From the IMG/VR virus record IMGVR_UViG_3300048670_001104: a stretch of DNA of 64,000 bases; one strand, 5' to 3'. The number at the start of each line of letters is the position of its first letter. The stretch's first letter is position 1. The position numbers and the translations under genes were made by a program. The notes under the pieces were generated by a model that was not told the DNA's origin, ran no database searches, and was given only the letters and a program-made list of their open reading frames with translations. The stretch is from a virus. Taxonomy: Duplodnaviria; Heunggongvirae; Uroviricota; Caudoviricetes. Shown one piece after another: positions 22,352 through 64,000 of the stretch.

Positions 22352-22380
22352 AGTATATACACCTTGGAACAAGATGTCAA
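22352..22380 (-). promoter_or_regulatory. sigma70-type promoter TTGACA-N17-TATACT
   Basis: Minus-strand reading of tagtatatac...tgtcaa. Confidence 0.65.
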
Positions 22381-23079: not shown

Positions 23080-23108
23080 ATTATAACATAAAGGTTGATC
23101 AGTGTCAA
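23080..23108 (-). promoter_or_regulatory. sigma70-type promoter TTGACA-N17-TATAAT
   Basis: Minus-strand reading of aattataac...gtgtcaacc. Confidence 0.7.
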
Positions 23109-47401: not shown

Positions 47402-48010
47402 ATGACCATATTAGAAACACTGCGTGAGCAACGCTGGGACGATCATCGCTATTACCATCACAGCCGTATCAATCAATTCTTACATTTACTCAGTGCGTTA
47501 TCATTCATCGTGGCCTATGTGTATCTGATCATCGATCCTGTGATCAGTGCTTACATCGCCTGGTTGTTCTCAATGACCACACGCCAAGCCGGACATTTCT
47601 TCTTTGAACCCACGGACTACGACACCTACAATCAGGCCACACAAGATCACAAAGAGGCTATCAAGATTGGATACAATCTCAAACGCAAACGAGTACTGAT
47701 CGCTTGCTGGTTGGCTGTGCCGTTGCTGGCATATTTTGATGCGGCATTGTTTAACTTTGTGATGCCTGATGCTGCTCCAGACACCTTGATAGATAGAATT
47801 GGCTGGGGTTGGTTGTGGTTGGGTCTGGCTGCTGTGGTGTTCCGTATGATACAACTCACTGCCATACAAAGCCGTAGAGTCGCACTAGTGTGGTGTATCA
47901 AGATATTAACAGATCCATTCCATGACGCTGTGATCTATCGCAAGAGCCCGATCTATTTGTTGCGTGGGCAACTGATTGATCCTGACCTACGCCAAGACTA
48001 CGAAGATTAA
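47402..48010 (+). CDS. membrane protein (possibly DUF962/Mpo1-like)
   Basis: 202 aa. HxxxxNxxxH-like N-terminal region and multiple TM helices. AAGGAAA RBS. ATAAATA 17 nt upstream. Confidence 0.45.
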   Translation: MTILETLREQRWDDHRYYHHSRINQFLHLLSALSFIVAYVYLIIDPVISAYIAWLFSMTTRQAGHFFFEPTDYDTYNQATQDHKEAIKIGYNLKRKRVLIACWLAVPLLAYFDAALFNFVMPDAAPDTLIDRIGWGWLWLGLAAVVFRMIQLTAIQSRRVALVWCIKILTDPFHDAVIYRKSPIYLLRGQLIDPDLRQDYED

Positions 48011-49005
48011 AGTGGAGTAAGGTTGTCGCGGAATATCTGCCAGGCAGTCTGCCACGACCAGCGTTGGCTACCCGCTAACACTTGATCTCTATCCAACTGC
48101 AAACAACCAGTTATGGCATCGGCCAGGTCTTCATTCACAAATCCTGTCACACCCTGATCCACCACATCCAGTGGTCCTTGCACCGGATAAGCAGCCACTG
48201 GTGTGCCACAGGCCATGGCTTCGATCATCACTATGCCAAATGTCTCCCACTTGCTAGGAAACACAAACACATCAGCATCAGCATAGCATTGTGCCAGTGC
48301 ATGGCCAGTCTTGAATCCTTTGAACTCCACATCGGGATATAGTTTTTCCAGTCTAGCACGATCCGGGCCGTCACCTACCAACACTTTGCGAGCACCCGGA
48401 TAATTCAAACTGCAAAACGCATCCAGATTCTTTTCTATACTGAGTCTGCACACACATAACAGCACAGGGCCCGATCCTCTGCTGCCACGATAACCAGGAT
48501 TGAATACGGTTCTATCAACGCCACGGGTCCATGAGTTGATCTCACCCCAGAAGCCATGAGCTCGGAGTTCTTTCACCATGCTGTCCGTGGTTGTGAGCAC
48601 ACGACCCGAGTGCTTGTGGAACCACCGCACATACTTCCAGGTGATGCTTTCAGGTATCCTCAAAAATTTATGTAAGGCTTCAGGGTACTTTGTATGGTAA
48701 GCAGTATTATACCTACGATAGTGCCGGTCAAGATAAAATCTAGCGTAGAGACCCAAAGGACCTTCTGTGGCGATGTGTATATAATCCGGAGCCATCGTTC
48801 TAATCTTCTGCCCGATCGCCCAGGGAATCGAAACTTTAACTTCAGGGTAGCCTGGGCAATCAAAAAATACGAACTCCATGGGAGTAAGATATAACACACG
48901 ATAGCCATCCAGAACCGCACATGCCTCAATATTCTTGTATGTGGTAACAACGCCATTGATCTGCTCCGGCAAGTTATCTGTTATTATCAGTATCGTCTTG
49001 ATCAT
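48007..49005 (-). CDS. glycosyltransferase family 1 (GT4-type)
   Basis: VFPSKWETFGIVMIEAMACGTPVAAYPVQG (E-x7-E-like GT1 signature region). Confidence 0.8.
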   Translation of the reverse strand: MIKTILIITDNLPEQINGVVTTYKNIEACAVLDGYRVLYLTPMEFVFFDCPGYPEVKVSIPWAIGQKIRTMAPDYIHIATEGPLGLYARFYLDRHYRRYNTAYHTKYPEALHKFLRIPESITWKYVRWFHKHSGRVLTTTDSMVKELRAHGFWGEINSWTRGVDRTVFNPGYRGSRGSGPVLLCVCRLSIEKNLDAFCSLNYPGARKVLVGDGPDRARLEKLYPDVEFKGFKTGHALAQCYADADVFVFPSKWETFGIVMIEAMACGTPVAAYPVQGPLDVVDQGVTGFVNEDLADAITGCLQLDRDQVLAGSQRWSWQTAWQIFRDNLTPL

Positions 49006-49795
49006 TTTCTCGGGTCCATGTAACTATTTCCCACCGACCATCATGATGCTCTACAAGTGCTGTACAACTTTCCACCCAGTCACCATCATTCATGTAGGTC
49101 ACGCCGTTGATGTCGCGGATCTCTGCATGGTGGATGTGACCGCATATGACACCATCATATCCACGCTTCTTGCAGTAGTTAGCGAGATTCTGTTCAAACT
49201 GGAAAATAAAATCCACTGCTTTTTTCACACGATGTTTTAGATATTTACTCAAACTCCAATACCCAAAACCTAGTTTGTGCCGCAGCCAGTTGAATCTGGT
49301 GTTCCATATCAGGATCATGTCATAGGCCGCATCGCCAAGAAAACTCAACCACGGTGCCAGTCTGGTGATGCCATCAAACATGTCGCCATGCACCACGAGA
49401 TAATGTCGACCATCAGCACCCGTGTGTTCAGTCTGATTGCATATCTCTATCAAGCCAAAATTAAATCCATATGGTATCATTGGGCGCAGGAATTCGTCGT
49501 GATTGCCTGCCACATAGATCACTCGTGTGCCGCGTTTGGCATGGCCCAGCACACGCCGCACCACATTGGTATGGCTCTGTTTCCAACGCCATTTGTTCTG
49601 TTGGATACGCCAAGCATCAATGATATCCCCCACTAGGTACAGGGTATCACAGGTGTTGTGTTTGAGAAAGTTGTTGAGTCGGTCGGCCTGGCAGTCTCTT
49701 GTGCCCAGATGCACATCACTGATTGCTATTGTTCTATATTTTTTTTGTTGTTTTATCATAAATAAAAGTGTAGTTCGCGGGCGTCCACTCCCCAA
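48974..49795 (-). CDS. metallophosphoesterase, LpxH-like (UDP-2,3-diacylglucosamine hydrolase family)
   Basis: IAISDVHLG, LYLVGDIID, AGNHDEF, GHIHH motifs. Confidence 0.7.
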   Translation of the reverse strand: MGSGRPRTTLLFMIKQQKKYRTIAISDVHLGTRDCQADRLNNFLKHNTCDTLYLVGDIIDAWRIQQNKWRWKQSHTNVVRRVLGHAKRGTRVIYVAGNHDEFLRPMIPYGFNFGLIEICNQTEHTGADGRHYLVVHGDMFDGITRLAPWLSFLGDAAYDMILIWNTRFNWLRHKLGFGYWSLSKYLKHRVKKAVDFIFQFEQNLANYCKKRGYDGVICGHIHHAEIRDINGVTYMNDGDWVESCTALVEHHDGRWEIVTWTRENDQDDTDNNR

Positions 49796-49825
49796 CTACT
49801 CTAACGCTATAAGGAGCAATCAGTA

Positions 49826-50479
49826 ATGAGTATTTATAAAGAGATTCGTTACAAAAATATTAGGCTCAATGGGTATTACATCTATGCATATTTAAGAAAA
49901 GATGGCACACCTTACTATGTAGGTAAGGGGCAACAATACAGAGCATGGATGAATCACAGAGTCAATAATAAAGGAGTCCATACTCCTAAAGATATAGACC
50001 GTGTAATCATTATGGAGCAAGATTTATCCGAAGTAGGAGCGTTTGCATTAGAACGCAGATATATTCGCTGGTACGGCAGAAAGGATGTAGGCACAGGTAT
50101 ACTACATAATAGGACAGACGGTGGCGAAGGTGGATCAGGTGCAAGTGCCGGCAAGGCTCGTCCCGGGGAACTTAACGGAATGTATGGAAAGAGGCGGCTA
50201 CCAGAACTCATTGCCAAAGCAGTTGCCGCTTCGGTATTAAATTTAAAAGGTAAAACTTACGAGGAAATATACGGATTAGAAAAAGCCGCTAAACTAAGAA
50301 AACAGAGATCTGATTCCTTAAAGGGGAAAAAGAAATCTCCTGAACATGCCGCTAAATCTAAAGCCAACGGTATGAAGGGTGCTCTAAAGATTGGTGCCGC
50401 TCGTAAAGGCAAGACTTGGGATGAAATCTACGGCAAAGAAAAAGCCGACGAAATAAGAGCACTCCGACGGCTTAAATGA
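49826..50479 (+). CDS. GIY-YIG homing endonuclease (seg-like) with NUMOD-type DNA-binding repeats
   Basis: [20 protein letters not shown] (GIY...YIG), R, E, N catalytic residues. C-terminal repeats G(K/M)..S.EH..K.S.A..G. AAGGAG RBS. Confidence 0.85.
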
Positions 50480-51505
50480 TTACAACTCCAACCACCGACG
50501 ATGCAGTTGATCAGTGGCCAAGTTCTTGCCCTTGGCTTCGACCTGGATATCCCAATCTTCACTAAAGGTCAATGCCCAGTCAGTCACAGCTGAGTTCCAA
50601 AGAAAGTCCGAATGTGCTCGAAGTTTCTGTTTACGGTATCCCCGGTCAAGTAGTTGTGCGAGATCAGGTCGAGTTCCGGGATCGTGATCAACCAGAATAT
50701 CTTCACGGCTAACACTATAGTGAAGTGCAGGACGAGTACCGCGCCAAGACTCCACAACACGACGCGCCCTAGAGTCCGAGGGGGTGATGTATTCACCGGT
50801 GTTGATCCAGTGGTGGTGGATGTCCAGCGTAAGAGCACAATGCTCAGCCACAGCCAAAGTAACGTCGATACCATTTGTCATCTCATCATTCTCGATAGCG
50901 ATTAGATTCCTGGCTTCGGGTGTGAGTCGACCCAAAGTCTGCAGGAATTTAGCGGGGCCACCTTTACCGCTCAAATGCACATTTATCTTGAAACCGTGAT
51001 CATGCCAGCCAGCGCCATAGCCCATCCAACGAGCCATGTCTGCATGATATTCAAACTCTAGTATGCTGCGTTCAACGATCTCATCAGATTCCGACGCCAA
51101 CACACAGAACTGTCCAGGGTGGAAACTCAGCCGTACACCAAGACGACGAGCAGCCTCGCCCACAGGAGCAAATATCCGTTCGCAGTGGTCTTGGATTTCT
51201 GTTCGTTGCCACCAGTCGATCCAGGATGGTTCAGTGTAGCCTTGCAGCATTTCTGAACCTAGCCGGACCATACGGCGTTCTGGTGCCATTGCACCCACAC
51301 GCTCTACCATCATCAACGCAGCACGAGCATTGTGGTTCATGATGTCCCACTGACGCTGGTCGGCTTCTTCCTTGTGTTCGCGTAGCCAACGCATTGTGGT
51401 GCTTCTGCCGTTGATATCACGGTCCACAGCATTCACCTTCATACCGCCGCATTCATTAGGGTCGTTAAGCCACTTGCAGCAAAATCCGAATCGAGCCATG
51501 ATCAT
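50480..51505 (-). CDS. UV damage endonuclease UvdE/UvsE-like
   Basis: MIMARFGFCC, SFHPGQF, LDIHHHW, DIQVEAKGKNLA align with B. subtilis UvsE landmarks. Confidence 0.72.
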   Translation of the reverse strand: MIMARFGFCCKWLNDPNECGGMKVNAVDRDINGRSTTMRWLREHKEEADQRQWDIMNHNARAALMMVERVGAMAPERRMVRLGSEMLQGYTEPSWIDWWQRTEIQDHCERIFAPVGEAARRLGVRLSFHPGQFCVLASESDEIVERSILEFEYHADMARWMGYGAGWHDHGFKINVHLSGKGGPAKFLQTLGRLTPEARNLIAIENDEMTNGIDVTLAVAEHCALTLDIHHHWINTGEYITPSDSRARRVVESWRGTRPALHYSVSREDILVDHDPGTRPDLAQLLDRGYRKQKLRAHSDFLWNSAVTDWALTFSEDWDIQVEAKGKNLATDQLHRRWLEL

Positions 51506-52056
51506 GTACCGTTGTTGTTGTTACCTAGTAATTGTAACACATTTGGCAATAGATCTCTAGTGATATTGGAGAGTTTTTGGATGGGTTCGGCAAGATCGGT
51601 GTGATGATCTACGATCACCCATTGCTTACCGCTGAGTTCTATAGCGTTGGCCAGGATACCGATGTAGTTGTTTCTGCTTGGTGAGGGCGTGGTTTTTGCT
51701 TCCAGATCAAATCCTACCATGAGTATCACATCTGCTACACTAGCAACTAAATGTGTGGCTATGATGTCGTCAACCGAATCCACTGCAAAATCAAAAACTC
51801 CACCAAATGCTCGCACACCCACCGGCCGGTCTAACTGTTGATAAACAATTTCGGGTATGTAGAGATTACAGGTCTTGGCGTAGCCTTGACGGCACAATTT
51901 CTCTGCCTGTTCCGGATTCCAACATACCACATTGTCGGATTGGTAACTTCTTTGTGTGCGCCAACTACCCCAGATGGGTGCAAGATCCCGTATGGCCTGC
52001 ACTGGTGTAGTAGGCGGTAATACTGTATTTTCTGCAAACAACCATGCTATGTTCAT
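51502..52056 (-). CDS. hypothetical protein
   Basis: 184 aa. ATGA junctions on both sides. Confidence 0.5.
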   Translation of the reverse strand: MNIAWLFAENTVLPPTTPVQAIRDLAPIWGSWRTQRSYQSDNVVCWNPEQAEKLCRQGYAKTCNLYIPEIVYQQLDRPVGVRAFGGVFDFAVDSVDDIIATHLVASVADVILMVGFDLEAKTTPSPSRNNYIGILANAIELSGKQWVIVDHHTDLAEPIQKLSNITRDLLPNVLQLLGNNNNGT

Positions 52057-52970
52057 GCTTCTCTATGTAGATCCAAAGTAACGCAATGGAATCCACCACC
52101 CAAGGTCCTGCTGTGACGCAGTTGCATGGGTATCACTGTGAACTGGTTCTTTTCTAATAAGCTGATCAACATGGGTTGATCTTTATCCACGATCACTGTG
52201 TGAGGATTCACTACCAACATATTTAATGCTATCCATTTTGATGCATATGGGTACTGAAAGAATCCTTGTTCTTCCACGTGGTTGCAGTAGATCACTTCCC
52301 AGTCTTTGAGCGATTGAGGTAAGTTGTCGGGTGTCACACGACTGCCGTTGACCAGCACAAGACCTTCACGCAGTGGCACTATGGTTGAATCAATATGCAC
52401 ACCCGAATAGAAGTTAACTAATTCAATATCAACCGTAGGGAAATGCTTGCACATCCATTCATAAGCAGCCCGATTGCCCGAGGACGATTCTAAATAAATC
52501 CACTTATCATTTAGCCTAGCGATGTTGGCAGCATCCAAGGTCATTCCTTCGTGGCGAGGCATGAATAGATAGTTGGTGGCTGCATCCACGACATCGTGAT
52601 AGCATTGCAGTTCCATGTCTCTGCAGGGATACATCATGGCAGGATTCACTATGGTGTCGCCGTAAACCAACAGTCGATCTCTTGGACAATAGTTATACAT
52701 GCCATCATGTGCTTGGAAATTGAAATCATCTGGGCGGAACACTTCCACATTCAACGATTTCAGCAAGCCAACCAATTGATCAAGATCCTCGTTGGCCTCT
52801 GCAATAATCCAGTCTGGAACCGGTCCCGACGGCACAGGTGTATCTTTCCATAGTGTGCGTTCTTTTTCTAGTGCAAATACCGGATCATTTACCGGCCAGT
52901 TGGCGTGATCGGCACGCCCCACTACCGCGGATCGCAACGGATCCCATTCGTTATAACTGTGGATTTTCAT
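52053..52970 (-). CDS. amidinotransferase family protein
   Basis: C-terminal LGGGFHCVTLDLHR (catalytic Cys motif of the amidinotransferase / arginine deiminase superfamily). Confidence 0.68.
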   Translation of the reverse strand: MKIHSYNEWDPLRSAVVGRADHANWPVNDPVFALEKERTLWKDTPVPSGPVPDWIIAEANEDLDQLVGLLKSLNVEVFRPDDFNFQAHDGMYNYCPRDRLLVYGDTIVNPAMMYPCRDMELQCYHDVVDAATNYLFMPRHEGMTLDAANIARLNDKWIYLESSSGNRAAYEWMCKHFPTVDIELVNFYSGVHIDSTIVPLREGLVLVNGSRVTPDNLPQSLKDWEVIYCNHVEEQGFFQYPYASKWIALNMLVVNPHTVIVDKDQPMLISLLEKNQFTVIPMQLRHSRTLGGGFHCVTLDLHREA

Positions 52971-53488
52971 ACAGTTCCGGTTAGTTGTAATGTGTATCTA
53001 TTGGTTTGACCCATGTTGGCCGCCAGGTGCAAAAAGTCATCGTGCCATGATACCCAATCTCCGGCACGCCATCCTGTGACCGGAGTTCCGTTCATTTCTA
53101 GGTAGTGGCCGCTGGACCAGTCTTCCAGGAATACTATGGTCCTCACCACCGAATGTGTAGTTTCCAATCCATGTATCAGCTTGAATCTATCATAGGTATC
53201 TCTATGTGCAGGTAACACACAGCCCGGTATCATGCGATAGAAACTCCATGAGAATCTTTCAAACGGGAATACATCGCGAAATGAGTCTACCCAGGTAGGT
53301 TCACTGTTACGCATGTCATACATGTCTCCGGTGAATCTACTTTGAGAGAAGCCTAACCTACGCCATTCTGTGAGACTGGAAGAGTCGTTGAATGGTTCGT
53401 TGATGTAGGCTAGATCTCTGTGCCCGAGACCCCACCAAGGATCCACGTGCCCCTGTGCCCAGGTGTTATTTTGCGCGGGTGTTACCAT
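52967..53488 (-). CDS. hypothetical protein (cupin/hydroxylase-like, tentative)
   Basis: LPAHRDTYD...H spacing reminiscent of HxD...H metal sites. Confidence 0.4.
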   Translation of the reverse strand: MVTPAQNNTWAQGHVDPWWGLGHRDLAYINEPFNDSSSLTEWRRLGFSQSRFTGDMYDMRNSEPTWVDSFRDVFPFERFSWSFYRMIPGCVLPAHRDTYDRFKLIHGLETTHSVVRTIVFLEDWSSGHYLEMNGTPVTGWRAGDWVSWHDDFLHLAANMGQTNRYTLQLTGTV

Positions 53489-54704
53489 AGTGGATCACGG
53501 TTAACCCGGCCATGTCACCGAGTTTGCGCCATGGATCAACAATTATAGAACCCTGGGGAATTGTGCAATAGGGTTGTGTTTCGGGTTGATCACCGGTGTA
53601 CTCATATGTGATCTTGCGATCATGTGCCCACAGTATCACCGCTGGTCCAGTCAAATCTGTGACCACATCTGTAGGATCATCTGCCAATGGATCAAGATAC
53701 CGCACCTCAAATCCGGCTTGTTTCACATAATGTCCGACTAGGGTAGAGTATGATCCAATGCAGTAAGGAACATCGGGCTTGTAGGCCTTACCATGTATCA
53801 CTATGCCTAATGCATGTTGTCGAGCATGACCAATCAGGAATTCGGCTAGATTCCGTGCCTGGATCTCTCTGGCATGCATCACAGTATCAAACAAGTCGTA
53901 TCCGATATTGTATTCTTTTGCCAACCAACGCAGAGCAATGTTATCACGAGGGTGACAAGCGCCTGCATCACCCATGCCTGCTGTCATGTATTTGGGTCCC
54001 ATGATTCTCATGGTGCTACGTGACAGTGCATTTGTGACCACATCCACATTGATATTACCGATCCGCATGGCAAAATCTTGAATCATGTTTACCAAGCCCA
54101 CTTTGGCCGAGATGAACGTGTTATAGAAGATCTTCACAGCTTCGCATTCGTCCCAGGTGCCGATTTCATAGCGTGGGTCGTTCTGCATCACAGTATCGTA
54201 CAAATCCTTGAGTTCGCCTGCTATACCATTCCAGTCACCGTCCTCTGTACCAATCATGATCATTTCCGGATTGACCATGTCCCACTTGACCGATCCCATG
54301 GCAATGAGATAGGGGTTATATAAGAACTGATGTTTTGAGTCCAACAATGGCACAAAATGTTTACGTGTGGTACCCGGCAATACAGTGCTGATCAGTACCA
54401 CTTTCTTAGAATCACGTGCATGAGTGTTGACCTTGTTGATGGCATCAATCACTGCTGCATGACCAAAGTCTCGAGGTTCCATATGGCTGGACGGAACCGA
54501 TCCGTCATAGCCATCGGCATGTGGAGTTGGTACAGCAATAAAAATCCATTCGCTTTCGTTAACCAATTCATCGATATCGCAAACTTTTACCAAGTCACTC
54601 ACACGCGGGTAAATATCATAGCCTCTGACTTCGTGCTTCTCTGCCATGACTTCGGCGCAATCAAGTCCTAGCTTACCGATACCAATAAAACCAATTTTCT
54701 TCAT
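53466..54704 (-). CDS. nucleotide-sugar (UDP-glucose/GDP-mannose type) dehydrogenase
   Basis: N-terminal Rossmann KIGFIGIGKLG. Catalytic Cys context GDAGACHPRDNIAL. AAAGGAA RBS. Confidence 0.75.
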   Translation of the reverse strand: MKKIGFIGIGKLGLDCAEVMAEKHEVRGYDIYPRVSDLVKVCDIDELVNESEWIFIAVPTPHADGYDGSVPSSHMEPRDFGHAAVIDAINKVNTHARDSKKVVLISTVLPGTTRKHFVPLLDSKHQFLYNPYLIAMGSVKWDMVNPEMIMIGTEDGDWNGIAGELKDLYDTVMQNDPRYEIGTWDECEAVKIFYNTFISAKVGLVNMIQDFAMRIGNINVDVVTNALSRSTMRIMGPKYMTAGMGDAGACHPRDNIALRWLAKEYNIGYDLFDTVMHAREIQARNLAEFLIGHARQHALGIVIHGKAYKPDVPYCIGSYSTLVGHYVKQAGFEVRYLDPLADDPTDVVTDLTGPAVILWAHDRKITYEYTGDQPETQPYCTIPQGSIIVDPWRKLGDMAGLTVIHYGNTRAK

Positions 54705-57549: not shown

Positions 57550-57996
57550 TTACGAATTGTAAGCAATCGCAATACTCTTTGGCTTGGCTGACTCAGGAAC
57601 TTCACGTTCCAGCAGCACAGTCAAGATACCATCACGAATGGCAGCACCTTTCACTTCCACATGCTCAGCAAGCGGAAATGTCTGTTTGAAATCTCTAGCA
57701 GAGATTCCACGGTGCAGATATTCGTGTTCTTGGTCTTTTTCAGTTTTCTTGGCACCTGTAATGGTGAGCAAGCGTTGATCAAGACTGATATCAATTTCGC
57801 CTTCAGCAAATCCAGCCACAGCCACTTCAATGGTCACGGTGTGATCACCGGTCTTGATCACATTGTGAGGTGGGTAGTTGGTTGAACTTTGAGTCTGTGT
57901 GACACGCTGTAGGTCGGTGAACAGATCGTCAAAACCAATACCAAATTTGTTGAATGCGGGGATATCGAAGGCACGAAGGTGCAGAGTTTTTGTCAT
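57550..57996 (-). CDS. small heat-shock protein Hsp20 (IbpA-like)
   Basis: YPPHNVIKTGDHTVTIEVAVAGFAEGEIDISLDQRLLTITGAK...YLHRGISARDF matches the alpha-crystallin domain. AAGGAG RBS. Confidence 0.85.
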   Translation of the reverse strand: MTKTLHLRAFDIPAFNKFGIGFDDLFTDLQRVTQTQSSTNYPPHNVIKTGDHTVTIEVAVAGFAEGEIDISLDQRLLTITGAKKTEKDQEHEYLHRGISARDFKQTFPLAEHVEVKGAAIRDGILTVLLEREVPESAKPKSIAIAYNS

Positions 57997-58064
57997 GTTG
58001 TTTCTCCTTTAATAAGCAAGTATGACTATGAATGTAGACCCCACCATGGGCATCTACAAGTGTA

Positions 58065-58093
58065 TTTATACATAAAATCTCAATGATTGTCAA
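58065..58093 (-). promoter_or_regulatory. promoter TTGACA-N17-TATAAA containing an exact TATAAATA (T4 late-type) element
   Basis: Minus-strand reading of tgtatttatacataaaatctcaatgattgtcaa. Lies upstream of hsp20. Confidence 0.55.
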
Positions 58094-58352
58094 GTTTCAT
58101 CGGCTCGATCATTCTGTAGTTTCGGAGTTCCGGATGTTTAGGATTCCAAGTCAGGGCAAAAAAACTATACATCTCATCGGGCTCTAGCACTACCCTAGTG
58201 ACATATTTTACCGTTTTGATTTGGTAAGCAATCGTATGCTTCTGATACCAGATCAGTAATTCTTCATGTAATATATGATTGACCCAAGCTGCTTGGCTAG
58301 GCTTGTCGTTGACTCCAAGATCAGCAGCAAGGAGATCAAACGCGATATACAT
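58080..58352 (-). CDS. hypothetical protein coupled to clpX
   Basis: 90 aa. TGATG 1-nt overlap with the clpX stop. Confidence 0.5.
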   Translation of the reverse strand: MYIAFDLLAADLGVNDKPSQAAWVNHILHEELLIWYQKHTIAYQIKTVKYVTRVVLEPDEMYSFFALTWNPKHPELRNYRMIEPMKLDNH

Positions 58353-59557
58353 CAGTCTGTGCCGTCTAACGCAGCAGGTGCTAGTACCATGCTGGGCTCG
58401 ATCTTAACGACCTTGATGCCCATTCCTGAATAACGACGTAGATTAAACATGTGTGGTATCAAGGTGCGTTCAATCTCTGAATGCAAGCCTCTAGCACCTG
58501 TTTTGTTTGTGAGTGTGCGTTCTGCTATGAGATCCAGGGCAGATTCAGTGAACTCCAACTCCACGCCATCTTCTTTGAACAGCCAGTGATACTGTTCAAT
58601 ATAGTTGTTCTTGACTTCGGTAAGGATGCGGATCAAGTCTGCTTTTGACAGTTCACGCAGGCTTACCCAGTTGGGAAAGCGTCCCACAAACTCTGGAATC
58701 ATACCAAACTTCACAAGGTCGTCCGGTGTGGTCATGTCCAGGTCTGTGTCTATACTGGCTTGTACTCGGGCATTAAATCCGATTGATGTGCCTTGCACAC
58801 GATTCTTTACTATGCTGTCTAGCCCTACAAAAGCACCACCGGCAATAAACAAGATATTCTTGGTATCGATCTCGATCATGTCACCGCCGGGGTGTTTGCG
58901 CCCGCCCGCAGCACTCACGCGGCACACTGTGCCTTCTACCATTTTCAGCAGAGCCTGTTGCACACCTTCTCCGGATACATCGCGTGTGATTGAGGTCGAT
59001 TCCCCTTTACGAGCGATCTTGTCAATCTCATCCACAAACACAATGCCTCTCTGTGTTTTGGCAATATCGTTGCCCGATGCAGCATACAGTCTGCTGATTA
59101 GACTTTCCACATCATCGCCCACATAACCTGCTTCGGTGATTGATGTTGCATCTGCGATGGCAAAAGGCACGTCAAGATATCGTGCCACACTTTTGGCCAG
59201 CAGGGTTTTGCCCGAGCCAGTTGGTCCCAACATCAGGATGTTGGCTTTGTCCAGTTCGGGTTCCGCTGTGGTCTTGCTGATGCGTTTGTAATGATTCACA
59301 ATGGCCACGGCCAACATGATCTTGGCAGAGTGTTGGCCTATCACATATTGATCTAGGTATTTCTTCAACACCATGGGATCCATCTTGTCTGATGGTTGTG
59401 GAGCGATCTCCACCACAGGTGTTTCATCCTTGAGCAAGTCCTGGCAGAAGTCCACGCATTCGTTGCAGATACCTGCGTATTCACCCACGATGAGGTTCTT
59501 TACCGAGTCTTTGTTTTTGCCGCAGAAGCTGCAATTGGTGTGTGTTTCTTTGGTCAT
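58352..59557 (-). CDS. clpX: ATP-dependent Clp protease ATP-binding subunit ClpX
   Basis: N-terminal C4 zinc finger CSFCGK...CNEC. Walker A GPTGSGKT. Extended similarity to ClpX throughout. Confidence 0.9.
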
Positions 59558-61086
59558 TTGGTATGTATGCGTTGTTCTATCTGATCGCGTTCGCTGTCAC
59601 TAAGCATATCCGGGTCATAGCGACCTTGTTCAATTTCATCAATCAAGTGATCGATGTATGCTGTGTCGTAGGTGTAGTTTTCTCGATTGATAATGTTGAT
59701 CCATTGATCGCCATTGTGTTTATATAGTTGGTTGGGAATGGCCGAGGTTAAAACATAGGTATCACCCTTGGTTCCTCCAGCAGGTAACTCTGTTCCAAAA
59801 TTGGCTTCGGGTTCGCGATGTAGGTAGTCTATCCAAGGCAGTCGATCTATCACGCCCACATCCAGCAACCGTCGTTGGCGTTTGAGACTGTCTCGTGGAT
59901 GGTCGGCTTTCCATCGTGCCTTGGCTGACTTGACTTCAGGGCTGTCTTCATCATCATCTTCTTCTGCTACGACTACTGGTTCTTCATCATCGGAGAATGG
60001 GCCATCCATGACATCACACTGGTTGTTAGGGCAGAACAATCCTATGCCGGGTGCATTGATCAGTTCTGTTGAGCACTTGTGGCAGTGGATGGCTTGGTAG
60101 TCAGTTGCTACGGTCTCTCGGATCTGTTCAAGCTGATCATTGGTGAGGGGGCCGTCATCTGGTTCGTAGTCCGGGACAGGCATGGACACAGTCGGCCAAG
60201 TCACATCAGCAACTGGTTCCGGCCAGGGTCGATTGTGTACATTTTCAGAAACATGTTCCTCAACTGGCTCTTCAATCTTGACCTTGGGCTTTTCTCTAGC
60301 CCACTTGAGACTTTCTGTAGCAGCCAACAACATCATGATGGCCAAGGGATCAAACACAAACACCAACAAGATTATGACCCAACGCACTGCTCGCTCTAAC
60401 ACATTGGTATCAGGGCTGTCGCCGTAGATCAGTGCTGCTATGTATTTGATTGGACCAACTTCGGCTTCCACCTTGCGAACTTCGGCCGCAATTGGAGCAC
60501 GGTCTTGATTGAGTGCTGTGATACGCTTTTGGCTTTCTGCAATTTCCGCAAGCAGGCGCTGACGCTCTTTCTGTTGGCTGCGCCTAACAGCCACAGCCTT
60601 GTCCGCACCTTGTGTGTCTGAACTGCGACCCATAACCTGGTCCACAGCCTGGTCCATTTGCGTAAGGGATTTACGGCTAACATCTATATTCTCCTTTTCA
60701 GTCCGGATTTTCTCATCATACACGGCAATTTTGGCAAGGACATCACCACTTACCAAACTCTGATCGCTATGGGCCTTTGATAGGAAACCAAAGATACCCA
60801 TGCTTGTGATCAACATCAACAACATCACAGCAGGAACCAAGTATAGTTTCATCAACCATCTGGCTCGATGCCAATACTCGTGCAGCCATATGGTCACAAC
60901 AACCTTGGCCACTTCTAGTATTGATCCCATGATCATGATGGGTATCACTGCCGCGGCAAAGATAGCTGCCAGGCCTGCTATGCTATAGTAGGCAGCAATA
61001 ACGCTGAGGCTCAAGGCCACAGCCAAGGTTATAAGACTGAGGAACATAAGATTATTTACCGGGTGGTGCGATGATAGTAACACCAC
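59554..61086 (-). CDS. membrane protein with long coiled-coil and acidic C-terminal region
   Basis: 510 aa (alternative start at the Met at 61047). N-terminal TM helices. ATGA junction with clpX. Confidence 0.5.
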
Positions 61087-61369
61087 ACTTTATGGCCACC
61101 CATGTGCCAAACTTTTCGTCGGGCACATCAAACCAAATACGCTCTTGTTTTTTTTCGTCAAGCCAGATGTTATGGCTCAATCGGCGCTTGGCACCGGATT
61201 GTCCACGCCAGTTACGGCCATACAAGGCATTGGCTTCGCGGATGATCTTGTACCACATCTCCGTAGTGCCAATCTCCATGTAAACGCGGTGCATGGGCGA
61301 GGGCGTTTTTTCAAGCGAGTTAAGTGACTCAGACATACTCAACGCAGAGGTCTCAATGTTAACAGACAT
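61052..61369 (-). CDS. hypothetical protein
   Basis: 105 aa. AAAGGA RBS. Preceded by a ~180-nt leader. Confidence 0.5.
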   Translation of the reverse strand: MSVNIETSALSMSESLNSLEKTPSPMHRVYMEIGTTEMWYKIIREANALYGRNWRGQSGAKRRLSHNIWLDEKKQERIWFDVPDEKFGTWVAIKCGVTIIAPPGK

Positions 61370-61558
61370 TTCTATATCCTTTCCAGACTATTTCTCATAG
61401 CATACTCCCAGGAACATCCTGGTTTTGATCTTTCGATCGAGGTCTCGGTCGCAACCTACGAGATTTATGTTCGAAGTGCTACGGAACAAGCAGGCATCTC
61501 GAGATTATGTTACCCTGCCCGCCCATCGAACAACTCACCTCCCCGCCCATGCCTAGCA

Positions 61559-61587
61559 ATTGTAGCACAGACCAGGAAAGGTGTCAA
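61559..61587 (-). promoter_or_regulatory. sigma70-type promoter TTGACA-N17-TACAAT
   Basis: Minus-strand reading of attgtagcacagaccaggaaaggtgtcaa. Confidence 0.6.
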
Positions 61588-61605
61588 GCCCAATCTGGTC
61601 TCGGA

Positions 61606-62304
61606 TTATTCTTTTCTGCCGCCGAACAACTGCAATAGATTGATAAACAGATTGATGAAATCCATGTACAAAGTCAATGCACCGCGCACTTCTGCGGCAT
61701 CACTGGTCTCTGCACTGAGTTCTTGACGGATTTGTTGTGTGTCGTAAGCAGTTAGTCCCAAGAAGATGATGATTGCCAAAGCCGAGATCACCATCTGCAT
61801 CACAGTGGATCCGATAAAGATATTCACAATACTGGCAATCACAATGGCAATCAAGCCCACAAACATCATCTGGCCCATTGAGCTTAGATCTTTTTTGGTA
61901 AAATAACCATAGCCACTCATTACCCCAAACAGGATGGCCGCACCCATGAATGCACTCACAATCGATCCCATGGTGAACACAGCAAAGATCGTGGCAAAAC
62001 TCAAGCCCATCAAGGCTGCAAAGCCATGCAAGCATAACTGTGCCACACCTTTAGTTGGATTGTTTCCTAGCACCATGCTAATACCAAATATTGCTGCCAG
62101 TGGTGCAAAGATCACAATCCACTTTAGGATGCCTGTAAAAAAGAATGCCAGCAACTCTGGGCTGGTTCCCACAAAGTAACTGACCAACATTGACACAATC
62201 ACCGCCAGGCTCATGTGTCCATACACACGGCCCATAGCACTGTTGATTTCTTCTGCTGAACGATAATTTATAAAACCGTTTTCTGTATAATTTGTACCAA
62301 ACAT
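61606..62304 (-). CDS. Bax inhibitor-1 / YccA family membrane protein
   Basis: Seven TM helices. C-terminal ALTLYMDFINLFINLLQLFGG matches the BI-1/YccA signature. AAGGAG RBS. Confidence 0.82.
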   Translation of the reverse strand: MFGTNYTENGFINYRSAEEINSAMGRVYGHMSLAVIVSMLVSYFVGTSPELLAFFFTGILKWIVIFAPLAAIFGISMVLGNNPTKGVAQLCLHGFAALMGLSFATIFAVFTMGSIVSAFMGAAILFGVMSGYGYFTKKDLSSMGQMMFVGLIAIVIASIVNIFIGSTVMQMVISALAIIIFLGLTAYDTQQIRQELSAETSDAAEVRGALTLYMDFINLFINLLQLFGGRKE

Positions 62305-62314
62305 ATCGTTCTCC

Positions 62315-63115
62315 TTATTTTCCGTTGGTGGCCACTGTGGGTGTAACTACTCCATTGATAACCAGTGTTTGACCTTTGAAGTTGGCAATGGCATCTGGCA
62401 ACTTACGCATGGCTTCTGCTTCGGCTTCGGCCATCAGCAAGGGAATTGCCATTGGGTTGGCCTGCATGCTTTCGTTACGCTTGCGAGCTGTGGCCACTTT
62501 GACTTCTTCAGTCTTGAACTCGTTCTTGGCCTTGACCAATTCGTTAGCTGAAGCCACAACTGAGTCGGCTGGCACAATATTACGAATCAACACTTGACCA
62601 ATCATGATAGTGCCATCCAACTTTTCTTCCGCCAGGATTCGAGTAATCTGTTCCTTGATTTCAGTTTCCATGGCCTGTCGGCTATCGGCCATGTCCAGAG
62701 CTTCGTACTTGCGAGCACTCTTGTAGATAGCGTTACGTGCAGCATTGAAGAGGTAGTTGTACATCAAGTAAACGTCACCATCGTCCACGGCGTGAAAGCT
62801 GCGATTCTTGCTGTTGTAGATTTCAGCTACCTGTGCTTGATTGATGTTGTAGGTGATCAAGGCATCAAAGTCTTTCATTGTGCTGTTGTCTTTGGCCAGT
62901 GGAGTCATGTTCTCAACTTTAACACTGATCTCTTTCACAGGGAAAGTGATCACAGTTCCAATGATAGTCTGATTAAACGAACCAGGCAGCAACTCACCGG
63001 TGTTGACCTGTTTGTCAAAGCCCACACGAAGGCCAACCTCACCAGTTTCAATACGAGTACAACCTGTGGCCAGCAAGGCTGCGGTAAGAACGGAGAGAGT
63101 CAAAATACGTTTCAT
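62315..63115 (-). CDS. SPFH/band-7 (prohibitin/HflC-like) lipoprotein
   Basis: Lipobox LLATGC. SPFH core with a coiled-coil C-terminal region. AAGGAAA RBS. Confidence 0.78.
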   Translation of the reverse strand: MKRILTLSVLTAALLATGCTRIETGEVGLRVGFDKQVNTGELLPGSFNQTIIGTVITFPVKEISVKVENMTPLAKDNSTMKDFDALITYNINQAQVAEIYNSKNRSFHAVDDGDVYLMYNYLFNAARNAIYKSARKYEALDMADSRQAMETEIKEQITRILAEEKLDGTIMIGQVLIRNIVPADSVVASANELVKAKNEFKTEEVKVATARKRNESMQANPMAIPLLMAEAEAEAMRKLPDAIANFKGQTLVINGVVTPTVATNGK

Positions 63116-63124
63116 TATGTTTCC

Positions 63125-63301
63125 TTAAAATAAAATTACGATCACAGTCATTACCAGAACAGTCAGCAATGACACAATTATACTGTATGCAATGGACTTT
63201 GTCAAGGTCCACTGCTCCAGGCCTGTCATGTTTCTCCAGGCAGTGATACCAAAGTGAATCACCACAGCAAGCACAGCAAACGCCAACCAGAGTCTAATCA
63301 T
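63125..63301 (-). CDS. small membrane protein
   Basis: MIRLWLAFAVLAVVIHFGITAW...two TM helices. Confidence 0.4.
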   Translation of the reverse strand: MIRLWLAFAVLAVVIHFGITAWRNMTGLEQWTLTKSIAYSIIVSLLTVLVMTVIVILF

Positions 63302-63305
63302 GATA

Positions 63306-63518
63306 CTAAACGTCTCGTTCCATCTCACAGGCTTCGCGCACAAGGCTCAAGACCTCATCCACATTACTGCACATGATCTTTGCATTCACATAGTCGCCTT
63401 TTTTGTTGCGTCCACCCACTTCTACCATGAAGCCATTGTCATACATGTTGATTGAAAAGTTCTCATTCACTTTGACCAACTTGTCGCTGATCTTACTTAC
63501 CGTTTTTGCTGTTGCCAC
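63306..63518 (-). CDS. hypothetical protein
   Basis: 70-aa ORF. Confidence 0.45.
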   Translation of the reverse strand: MATAKTVSKISDKLVKVNENFSINMYDNGFMVEVGGRNKKGDYVNAKIMCSNVDEVLSLVREACEMERDV

Positions 63519-63542
63519 GCTTTTCTCCTTTTAAAATCTGTA

Positions 63543-63821
63543 TCATTGATAACATTCCCAAGTGTTGGCATCATAATTCCAATGCCGTGTGTCATAGAAT
63601 TGCAGTTCCGTTTCGTATCCAAACACACCCCACATGATTCTAGCACCTGCGTGGTCACCTTGTAGTGTCCATTCAAACTCTAGATTGATCAAGTTGCCAG
63701 TGCGGTATCCGTTGAACTCCCAGGCCTTGTTTCGAGAGATGGATCCTGACTTGTTCCACAGTATGTCCCACACCTTATTGGTCCGCCATGGCATGGCTAT
63801 ACCGAAGTTTAGATTGATCAC
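63543..63821 (-). CDS. hypothetical protein (GTG start per ORF track)
   Basis: 92-aa ORF. Start overlaps the stop of the partial upstream ORF (GTGA). Confidence 0.4.
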   Translation of the reverse strand: MINLNFGIAMPWRTNKVWDILWNKSGSISRNKAWEFNGYRTGNLINLEFEWTLQGDHAGARIMWGVFGYETELQFYDTRHWNYDANTWECYQ

Positions 63822-64000
63822 ACCACTTTGCCTAATACGCCGTAGATCAACTTATCCAGTTCTGCTTGATAATCGTGGTTGCCCAGTCGACGCTTGTGCC
63901 AGATTGTCTCCAGCAACAGTCGCATCTCATCAGCATCCACACCCCGGGCGTTGTAATCTTGACCACGACTCTCTAACTCTTGGATCAGTTCGTCAGTGTC
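63818..64000 (-). CDS. partial CDS (C-terminal 60 codons; gene continues beyond the window)
   Basis: Open frame through the window edge ending ...LGNHDYQAELDKLIYGVLGKVV*. Not in the ORF track because it lacks a start inside the window. Confidence 0.4.
   Translation of the reverse strand, partial: DTDELIQELESRGQDYNARGVDADEMRLLLETIWHKRRLGNHDYQAELDKLIYGVLGKVV

Follow-up and report, generated by a model that had tools for sequence, protein, structure and literature searches.

A gene for an SPFH/Band-7 lipoprotein and a gene for a membrane protein of the BI-1/TMBIM superfamily stand next to each other in a 64,000-nucleotide (nt) stretch of DNA from a tailed phage (IMG/VR virus record IMGVR_UViG_3300048670_001104; this whole stretch is called the window below). 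A preliminary description of the window had taken the two as a YccA homologue and an SPFH lipoprotein that, like YccA and HflK/HflC of E. coli, might together modulate the host membrane protease FtsH. The analysis reported here leads to a different picture. The conserved partner of the SPFH lipoprotein is tm58, a small membrane protein that is encoded immediately upstream of it and was absent from the preliminary description. We consider it probable that an old tm58-SPFH membrane-scaffold cassette and a separately mobile TMBIM gene, inserted behind it, have come to lie side by side in this lineage. A dedicated FtsH-modulating pair is unlikely.

Both open reading frames (ORFs) of the original pair are real, as judged from profile matches and from purifying selection. 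The ratios of nonsynonymous to synonymous substitution rates (dN/dS) among relatives are ~0.07 for BI-1 and 0.13 for SPFH, both approximate because dS is near saturation, and 0.32 for tm58. The two genes are adjacent on the minus strand, 10 nt apart, and each has a recognisable ribosome-binding site, AAGGAA in front of SPFH and AAGGAG in front of BI-1. PHROG matches to tail-fibre, lysin and endonuclease families, together with a phage ClpX gene, confirm the phage origin of the DNA. A Megablast search of positions 58000-64000 against 50,697 phage records gave no match, so the window has no cultured close relative; tblastn with its ClpX reached ~50% identity at best, in phages that include jumbo phages of Sinorhizobium and Agrobacterium. 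The relatives that the window does have are viral contigs from metagenomes, up to 340-380 kb long, which also encode ClpP and a family-B DNA polymerase. Gene neighbourhoods were surveyed in the 80 best IMG/VR loci for each query protein (BI-1 and SPFH), with flanks of up to 10 kb, by mapping window genes onto the loci with tblastn and by calling and clustering 3,967 flanking proteins.

tm58 and the tm58-SPFH cassette

Directly 5′ of the SPFH gene, and on the same strand, a tm58 gene is found in 67 of 82 loci. Viewed from the other side the association is complete, with SPFH as the downstream gene in 67 of 67 tm58 instances, and the gap between the two is 8-9 nt in 48 of the 67. All 48 unique tm58 sequences are exactly 58 amino acids (aa) long, without indels. 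The ORF list of the window holds a 72-aa version that starts at a TTG (63125-63343), but it is the ATG at 63301 that agrees with the homologues. The basic loop between the two transmembrane (TM) helices has the consensus R-x-M-x-G-K-E-R-W-x-L-T-K and is predicted to be cytoplasmic, with the N- and C-termini in the periplasm; the C-terminus is hydrophobic, IV(I/V)LF (IVILF). Searches with tm58 returned no Pfam NfeD match (E ≤ 0.01), no PHROG family and no PADLOC match.

The cassette is far older and wider than the BI-1 adjacency. As far as sequence can tell, it is common to Kuttervirus, cyanophages, these jumbo phages and some Betaproteobacteria. As in the window, a small two-TM ORF precedes an SPFH lipoprotein in the Salmonella Kuttervirus Vi01 (69 aa) and in the cyanophages BUCT-ZZ01 (58 aa) and S-CREM1 (53 aa). 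The three lipoproteins (Vi01_108c, phrog_200, in the first case) belong to the same family as that of the window, with 25-44% identity, a lipobox and lengths of 264-272 aa, and have been annotated in the literature without characterisation; unlike the window, their loci have no BI-1 gene nearby. In a cyanophage-like contig (L251:4815-5795; GCA_013558375.1, 122,926 bp) the SPFH gene has a clearly homologous 58-aa partner, and the cassette adjoins genes for heme oxygenase and ferredoxin-dependent bilin reductase. A 58-aa two-TM ORF also precedes an SPFH lipoprotein on a viral-looking contig (L253). Finally, between aspS and a Nudix gene on the chromosome of the betaproteobacterium Parvibium lacunae, an SPFH lipoprotein gene is preceded, at a distance of 13 nt, by an uncalled two-TM ORF of 60 aa (L250:7805-7987, QPGB01000006.1). 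The mature N-terminus of that lipoprotein, GCTRIETGEVGLR, is nearly identical to the one of the phage protein. Thus, the cassette exists, under-annotated, in cellular genomes too.

The Vi01 locus has annotations of its own. There the two-TM gene and the SPFH lipoprotein gene (L167:2113-3735) come directly after genes annotated 'superinfection exclusion' and 'endolysin' (102 aa), and a gene annotated as an Rz-like spanin lies ~2.6 kb upstream of the cassette; these annotations hint at an envelope-related role of the cassette in Kuttervirus. A Vi01-group homologue of the SPFH protein has been seen by mass spectrometry in phage preparations (PMC10892097), so at least that homologue is expressed. 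Otherwise, the literature that we found on phage SPFH lipoproteins mentions them at annotation level only.

The SPFH lipoprotein

The identification of the upstream gene of the original pair as an SPFH/band-7 lipoprotein holds. Its product matches Pfam Band_7 (PF01145) over profile positions 2-174 of 176 (E 1.7e-15, 57.9 bits against a cut-off of 23.6) and the PHROG family phrog_200, 'lipoprotein' (E 4e-27). The N-terminus, MKRILTLSVLTAALLATG↓C, is a signal peptide that ends in the lipobox LLATG↓C, with Cys19 encoded at 63059-63061. This cysteine is retained in 70 of 72 diverse homologues and in ~80 of 82 IMG/VR homologues. No TM helix follows Cys19, and ~5 residues separate it from the first SPFH1 strand. 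The protein is thus predicted to be exported and acylated at Cys19.

An AlphaFold2 model (mean predicted local distance difference test score, pLDDT, 77.9; >90 over the SPFH core) has the SPFH and coiled-coil-type architecture for which the preliminary description had called, namely SPFH1-SPFH2 followed by two long helices (184-219 and 223-244) and strands at ~252-257. Every element that forms a cage in this superfamily has its counterpart in the phage protein: SPFH1, SPFH2, two wall helices and a C-terminal cap segment. A Foldseek search of the PDB with the model gave 61 matches at E ≤ 1e-3, of which the best 50 comprise nothing but SPFH proteins and the related vault protein. Full-length matches at 12-19% identity, spanning E 1e-10 to 5e-7, were obtained to prohibitin (9o9z), HflK/C (9cz2, 7vhq and 7wi3), stomatin (9z7u), erlin and QmcA (8z5g), in alignments of 232-297 columns that cover entire prohibitin, HflK/C, stomatin and erlin subunits. 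Prohibitin is the best of them (9o9z: E 1.3e-10, TM-score 0.56), yet PHB1/2 are just 12-14% identical to the phage protein. These matches are about equally good, and HflK/C is not favoured.

An HflK/HflC-type assignment is not supported. The phage protein and the HflK/HflC-FtsH structures (7WI3, 7VHQ and 9CZ2) have the SPFH1-SPFH2-coiled-coil-C-terminal layout in common (Foldseek E 3.5e-10 to 9e-6), and both are periplasmic, the phage protein by prediction. However, the phage protein is the product of a single gene, is held in the membrane by lipid where HflK/C have an N-terminal TM helix, and is 14-19% identical. No NCBIfam family matched it at E ≤ 0.01, and hhalign of its family profile against E. 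coli HflK (E 0.22) and HflC (E 0.023) was not significant (probability <3%). The scanned 57.5-64 kb stretch holds one Band_7 gene, and hence no K/C-like paralogue pair. HflK Arg191, which is reported to contact the periplasmic domain of FtsH (PMC12048511), is not mappable onto the phage protein at such divergence. The model thus points to a complete, periplasm-facing SPFH protein that is probably cage-competent, without specific affiliation to HflK/C.

Two further branches of the superfamily bear comparison. SPFH4 proteins, or 'prokaryotic prohibitins', are predicted to face the periplasm, lack an NfeD partner and have been proposed as a replacement for HflK/C (PMC2636767). The phage protein resembles them in predicted orientation and in the missing NfeD partner, a likeness by description and not by phylogeny. 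The E. coli QmcA-YbbJ pair (8Z5G), an SPFH-NfeD operon, resembles the tm58-SPFH cassette in its tight co-directional coupling to a small membrane-protein partner (QmcA fold match E 5e-7). QmcA faces the cytoplasm (PMC2636767), whereas the phage protein has a signal peptide and would be exported. The possibility that tm58 is itself an NfeD protein was ruled out, as it has 58 aa and two TM helices only, with neither the oligonucleotide/oligosaccharide-binding (OB) fold domain of NfeD partners nor a Pfam match.

A BI-1 protein of the YbhL/YetJ branch

The downstream gene had been described as a member of the BI-1/YccA family; the superfamily stood, and the closer assignment to YccA did not. Its product matches Pfam Bax1-I (PF01027) over positions 2-207 of 207 (E 1.5e-54, 185.3 bits against a cut-off of 34.1), and residues 30-228 align with residues 4-206 of Bacillus subtilis YetJ (4PGR/4PGW), from TM1 to TM7 (E 4e-12). 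An AlphaFold2 model, made from a shallow alignment of 87-93% identical sequences, has a helix pattern that fits seven TM helices; it was discarded and kept out of the fold search because its mean pLDDT was 49.5. Comparison with the three E. coli paralogues YbhL, YbhM and YccA placed YbhL closer (38% identity over the full length, E 2e-48) than YccA (29% over 152 aa only, E 1e-15), and against the NCBIfam equivalog of YccA (NF007765) the phage protein scored 48.1 bits where the cut-off is 353.

The residues of the sensor tell the same story. Structural work on YetJ established an aspartate pair as the pH sensor of this Ca2+ leak channel, which we take to be D171 and D195, in TM6 and TM7. The phage protein has D188 (codon 61741-61743) in AYDTQ and D215 (codon 61660-61662) in YMDFINLF. 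In a multiple alignment the motifs AYDTQ and LY(L/M)DFINLF are common to the phage protein, YbhL and YetJ, with D188 and D215 matching the YD and LDFINLF of YetJ, and YccA carries Glu and Ser at these two positions. Phage homologues keep D188 without exception, whereas D215 is invariant or at least 90% conserved. In YetJ a basic residue, presumably an Arg, latches the sensor, and it aligns with the Lys-containing segment NPTKG of the phage protein. YbhL and YetJ (YetJ structures 4PGR, 4PGW and 6NQ7-9) are similar to the phage protein in length and helix count as well. With YccA it has in common the Pfam family and an N-terminal cytoplasmic tail before TM1; the first ~15 residues of its own tail are variable, with indels among relatives. 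On sequence grounds, then, the phage protein is a YbhL/YetJ-type TMBIM and not a YccA orthologue. JGI labels these proteins with the COG 'FtsH-binding integral membrane protein'. That label rests on YccA, for which alone an interaction with FtsH/HflKC has reportedly been documented (Kihara 1998; van Stelten 2009), and since the phage protein lies outside the YccA branch the label is no evidence of FtsH control.

The clade is abundant, with 584 related stretches in IMG/VR. No PHROG family matches the protein, and the phage GenBank collection yielded nine weak matches, mostly in short unannotated records. In contrast to the cellular YbhL and YetJ, these proteins are phage-encoded, and their closest relatives in 185,579 species genomes, mostly Alphaproteobacteria, are 38-51% identical at best among the matches listed. 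Recent capture from a host was rejected on the distance of the matches listed, which argues for a clade long resident in phages. Literature searches found nothing on phage TMBIM/BI-1, and phage-encoded TMBIM genes appear to have been undescribed so far. A clade this constrained and this widespread, outside any PHROG family, points to an activity worth carrying in infection and to a phenotype to test.

How often the two genes are neighbours

Had BI-1 and SPFH formed a conserved module, as was proposed, they should recur together. They rarely do. In BI-1-centred loci with room to judge, SPFH is directly upstream in 0 of 76 and within 6 kb upstream in 0 of 45; in SPFH-centred loci, BI-1 is directly downstream in 3 of 78 and within 6 kb downstream in 11 of 50, always co-directional. 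The 99 instances of BI-1 have 26 upstream and 33 downstream neighbour families, with SPFH upstream in 4. The flanks of the tm58-SPFH cassette are highly variable as well, with 27 upstream and 32 downstream neighbour families. Cellular genomes gave no sign of the pairing either: no SPFH gene adjoins ybhL or yccA in E. coli, and a hidden Markov model of the phage SPFH family found none within 6 kb on either side of the 80 closest cellular BI-1 genes, a negative of low power since the profile fails to recognise E. coli HflK/HflC.

Nonetheless, the pairing is not confined to the window. It was found in the related loci L091, L121 and L132, in which BI-1 is 70-89% identical to that of the window, and in one Logan contig (L255). 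The 10-nt junction is homologous in the first three despite divergent flanking coding sequence, and the same SPFH-10 nt-BI-1 junction appears in the Logan contig, from the independent sequencing run SRR35181280. It is thus no assembly artefact, and its homology across diverged relatives indicates that the juxtaposition arose once. The adjacency is a minority arrangement, inherited or recombined. Six other loci (L126-L130 and L136) show the alternative, with the order p70-tm58-SPFH-[227-aa acidic protein]-p105-mem510-ClpX-p90 and no BI-1. In five of these (L128:10820-11503; L126, L129, L130 and L136) a 227-aa acidic, Trp-rich soluble protein was identified in the slot after SPFH that BI-1 fills in the window, and this slot behaves as a gene-swapping hotspot. 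The 227-aa family is also common downstream of BI-1 elsewhere (10 of 99 instances).

A promoter within tm58

The coding sequence of tm58 contains a perfect consensus sigma-70-type promoter, P1, with a -35 hexamer that begins 90 nt 5′ of the start codon of SPFH (Table 1). Of 79 relatives, 48 retain at least 11 of the 12 consensus positions, for the most part with an unchanged offset. Codon choice indicates that the DNA and not just the protein is conserved. In 23 of 30 unique genes the Leu-Thr at the -35 hexamer is written TTG-ACA, where codon usage would predict ~13%, and wherever the protein reads S-I-[IL] the first Ile of the -10 hexamer is encoded by ATA, which accounts for just 6% of the Ile codons in these genes. 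A promoter conserved at the level of codons inside a gene illustrates dual coding cleanly. The pattern TTGACA-N17-TAYAMT has 4 matches across the window, with 0.07 expected. A TTGACA-17-TACAAT at the same -90 offset is present in the cyanophage-like L251; no promoter embedded at -90 was found in Vi01, BUCT-ZZ01 or S-CREM1.

A second promoter, P2, lies just past the BI-1 stop codon, where it overlaps a hairpin, so that in the window SPFH and BI-1 are predicted to be a discrete unit between two host-type promoters. The two are almost certainly co-transcribed. A host-type promoter in this position suggests early expression by the host RNA polymerase, with more transcript for SPFH than for tm58. 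Elsewhere in the window, two more exact TTGACA-N17-TAYAMT matches (22352-22380 and 23080-23108, both on the minus strand) are probably further host-type early promoters.

Proposed function and its alternatives

In our preferred reading, the lipoprotein would oligomerise and, together with tm58, form a dome on the periplasmic side of the cytoplasmic membrane, where it would sit over or beside tm58. It is placed at this membrane because tm58 is too small to reach the other one and has its termini predicted in the periplasm. By analogy, tm58 would take the membrane-embedded role that falls to NfeD in other systems (YbbJ with QmcA) or to the SPFH proteins' own TM helices elsewhere, and the embedded promoter would give SPFH extra transcription, which fits many scaffold subunits per partner. 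Its lipid anchor, its partner of 58 aa and the embedded promoter make this SPFH protein a new variation on the theme of SPFH plus membrane partner. As for BI-1, homology to B. subtilis YetJ suggests that it most likely lets Ca2+/cations leak, under pH gating, through the cytoplasmic membrane of the host. Its gene would have been inserted 10 nt behind SPFH in this lineage, and hence would use the SPFH promoter. In the course of a long infection by a jumbo phage, the two proteins would both probably act to condition the membrane of the host.

Several observations weigh against this reading. The residue after the lipobox cysteine (+2) is Thr in the window and never Asp across the family. Under the enterobacterial sorting rule, a +2 residue other than Asp sends a lipoprotein to the outer membrane, so that in enterics the SPFH protein would be predicted to part from tm58. 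The Vi01 homologue, whose host is Salmonella, has Gly at +2 and poses the same sorting problem. Another SPFH protein, a prophage-borne HflK/C-like one of Pasteurella, has been reported in outer-membrane vesicles (PMC9872710). The separateness of BI-1 may also be overdrawn: in the 11 of 50 SPFH-centred loci mentioned above, BI-1 lies 3-5.6 kb downstream in the same co-directional block, a loose linkage, and adjacency kept across lineages whose BI-1 proteins are 70-89% identical to that of the window could reflect selection for co-expression. The IMG/VR loci are redundant, ranked by identity and covered by crude gene calls, which makes the neighbour percentages descriptive and not independent counts. 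Finally, that TTGACA/TATAAT is the promoter type of the host is itself an inference.

Quite unlikely, in our view, is an FtsH module in which BI-1 acts in the manner of YccA, as pseudo-substrate or inhibitor, and SPFH supplies a cage of the HflK/C kind, the two taking over host proteostasis together with ClpX(P) and Hsp20. Its appeal is that both superfamilies include FtsH interactors, YccA and HflK/C (Kihara 1998, as cited in PMC12048511), that the periplasm- or intermembrane-space-facing cages of HflK/C and prohibitin, which are the top fold matches here, regulate FtsH-type proteases, and that SPFH4 is the proposed HflK/C replacement (PMC2636767). The two genes, predicted to be co-transcribed, keep their 10-nt junction in diverged relatives, and ClpX and Hsp20 follow 2-5 kb downstream. 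At ~30 aa, the N-terminal tail of BI-1 would in principle reach the length that engagement by FtsH requires. However, BI-1 falls in the YbhL/YetJ branch and not in that of YccA; the SPFH protein has neither the TM anchor and paralogue pair of HflK/C nor a match to HflK/HflC models or profiles; and adjacency is rare, with tm58 as the constant partner of SPFH and no such pair seen beside cellular BI-1 genes in the low-powered search above. An FtsH link for the SPFH cage is possible by analogy with HflK/C and prohibitin only, and for the BI-1 branch the case is weaker still. A role of early-expressed tm58 and SPFH in superinfection exclusion or envelope protection, blocking DNA delivery by later phages or lysis from without and leaving BI-1 a passenger, is unlikely too, although the conserved host-type promoter implies the early expression that it needs. 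A lipoprotein and a small membrane protein are what systems for phage exclusion, T5 Llp and T4 Imm/Sp for instance, usually consist of, and the cassette encodes both. Its flanks vary as those of a moron would, the non-Asp +2 residue fits an outer-membrane location, and in Vi01 the pair sits two genes from the 'superinfection exclusion' annotation, with genes labelled endolysin and spanin in the same block. Yet these Vi01 labels are unverified, PADLOC found no match, we know of no exclusion protein with an SPFH fold, and the housekeeping context of the cassette on a bacterial chromosome, between aspS and the Nudix gene, argues for a general membrane function.

Close to exclusion in our estimate, and likewise improbable, is a role of BI-1 in preventing host death: the channel would buffer cytoplasmic pH, Ca2+ or membrane potential and so keep the cell productive or blunt a depolarising abortive infection, while the SPFH cage stabilises the membrane alongside. 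This proposal overlaps the cassette-plus-TMBIM reading and adds to it a specific counter-defence purpose. Eukaryotic viruses carry TMBIM genes, among them poxvirus vGAAP and human cytomegalovirus (HCMV) US21, and the phage gene may parallel them, as in each case a virus carries a captured gene for a TMBIM ion channel; the hosts, however, belong to different domains, and anti-apoptotic logic has no direct bacterial equivalent. The intact pH-sensor residues, the very strong selection, the abundance of the clade together with its distance (at most 51% identity) from cellular homologues among the matches listed, and transcription from an early-type promoter all agree with such a role. Against it, no defence or anti-defence genes were recognised nearby with PADLOC, and the physiological role of bacterial TMBIM/BI-1 proteins (YbhL/YetJ) is, to our knowledge, itself unsettled, our literature search having given nothing relevant. 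Very improbable, by comparison, is a part in lysis timing, with tm58 as holin or antiholin and the SPFH lipoprotein as organiser of holin rafts. Two or three TM helices in a small protein are typical of holins, and the Vi01 two-TM gene directly follows the gene annotated as endolysin. But the basic loop of tm58 predicts an N-out/C-out topology and its C-terminal tail is uncharged, unlike class II holins; the jumbo-phage flanks are variable, with no endolysin or spanin recognised among the annotated genes round the cassette; the promoter is early and of host type; and the chromosomal copy has no lysis genes nearby. The assignment of tm58 and the lipoprotein as a holin/spanin set was rejected on the same topology, hydrophobic C-terminus, variable flanks and early-type promoter; the lipoprotein, moreover, is a 266-aa SPFH protein, unlike the short proline-rich o-spanins.

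Carried to its furthest, the reading of a scaffold cassette joined by a mobile TMBIM gene would describe an abundant clade of jumbo phages whose own TMBIM ion-leak channel holds pH, Ca2+ or membrane potential in a productive range or blunts depolarising suicide defences. Independently, tm58 and SPFH would build an unrecognised lipid-anchored periplasmic cage, its stoichiometry set by the embedded promoter and its client FtsH or another inner-membrane machine. In this full form the proposal is speculative and, though conceivable, doubtful. If true, the phage TMBIM would be to a bacterial virus what their captured TMBIM genes are to poxviruses and cytomegalovirus. SPFH cages (HflK/C, prohibitin, stomatin and flotillin) are an active structural topic, to which a lipid-anchored periplasmic SPFH protein with an obligate partner of 58 residues would contribute a minimal and tractable member.

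Genomic context

The genes beyond BI-1 lead into a cluster with ClpX and Hsp20, both identified by Pfam and NCBIfam matches (Table 1). The broad proteostasis theme of the preliminary description stands in that this cluster lies beside the pair and keeps a recurring order, and falls in that BI-1 is no fixed part of it. The order SPFH ... mem510 ... ClpX ... Hsp20 recurs in eight loci (L092, L104, L105, L126, L128-L130 and L136), and mem510-ClpX-p90-Hsp20 is conserved in five of them (L126, L128-L130 and L136). The membrane protein mem510, which has weak Pfam Tetraspanin and DUF4407 matches, could be a membrane adaptor for the phage ClpX, with whose gene its own overlaps. PADLOC found no match for BI-1, SPFH, tm58, p105, mem510, p70 or p92.

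Table 1. Features of the SPFH/BI-1 region and of the genes downstream, listed by position in the window
Feature	Position	Strand	Remarks
P1, consensus sigma-70-type promoter	63177-63205	-	TTGACA-17-TATAAT; inside tm58 coding sequence; 12/12 consensus positions
tm58	63125-63301	-	58 aa; two TM helices and short basic loop; immediately upstream of SPFH
SPFH/Band-7 lipoprotein	62315-63115	-	266 aa; signal peptide and lipobox, SPFH1-SPFH2, two long helices, C-terminal strand segment
SPFH-BI-1 junction	62305-62316	-	BI-1 ribosome-binding site AAGGAG (62311-62316) overlaps SPFH stop codon
BI-1/TMBIM membrane protein, YbhL/YetJ type	61606-62304	-	232 aa; N-terminal tail of ~30 aa, then ~7 TM helices
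Hairpin	61569-61602	-	GAGACCAG-N19-CTGGTCT; directly 3′ of BI-1 stop, overlaps P2; no T-run after it; candidate terminator
P2, second consensus promoter	61559-61587	-	TTGACA-17-(TG)-TACAAT; just past BI-1 stop; faces p105, 510-aa membrane protein and ClpX
p105	61052-61369	-	downstream context
mem510	59554-61086 (probable start ~61047)	-	membrane and coiled-coil protein of ~500 aa; four N-terminal TM helices
ClpX	58352-59557	-	start overlaps mem510 stop as ATGA
p90	58080-58352	-	between ClpX and Hsp20
Hsp20	57550-57996	-	small heat-shock protein

A search of the whole window against Rfam at gathering thresholds, and of 61300-61700 at permissive ones, gave no match, and ARAGORN found nothing. 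Between BI-1 and p105, the 236-nt intergenic leader (61370-61605, minus strand) folds more stably than shuffled controls (z = -2.97), and six relatives conserve its 3′ half, at 74-76%, in front of p105; the leader may act as a structured 5′ untranslated region or as a P2-driven small RNA. Farther away, positions 48007-54704 hold a group of sugar and modification genes, which encode a GT4 glycosyltransferase, a metallophosphoesterase, an endonuclease-like protein (phrog_8420), an Asp/Asn beta-hydroxylase-like protein and a UDP-glucose/GDP-mannose dehydrogenase.

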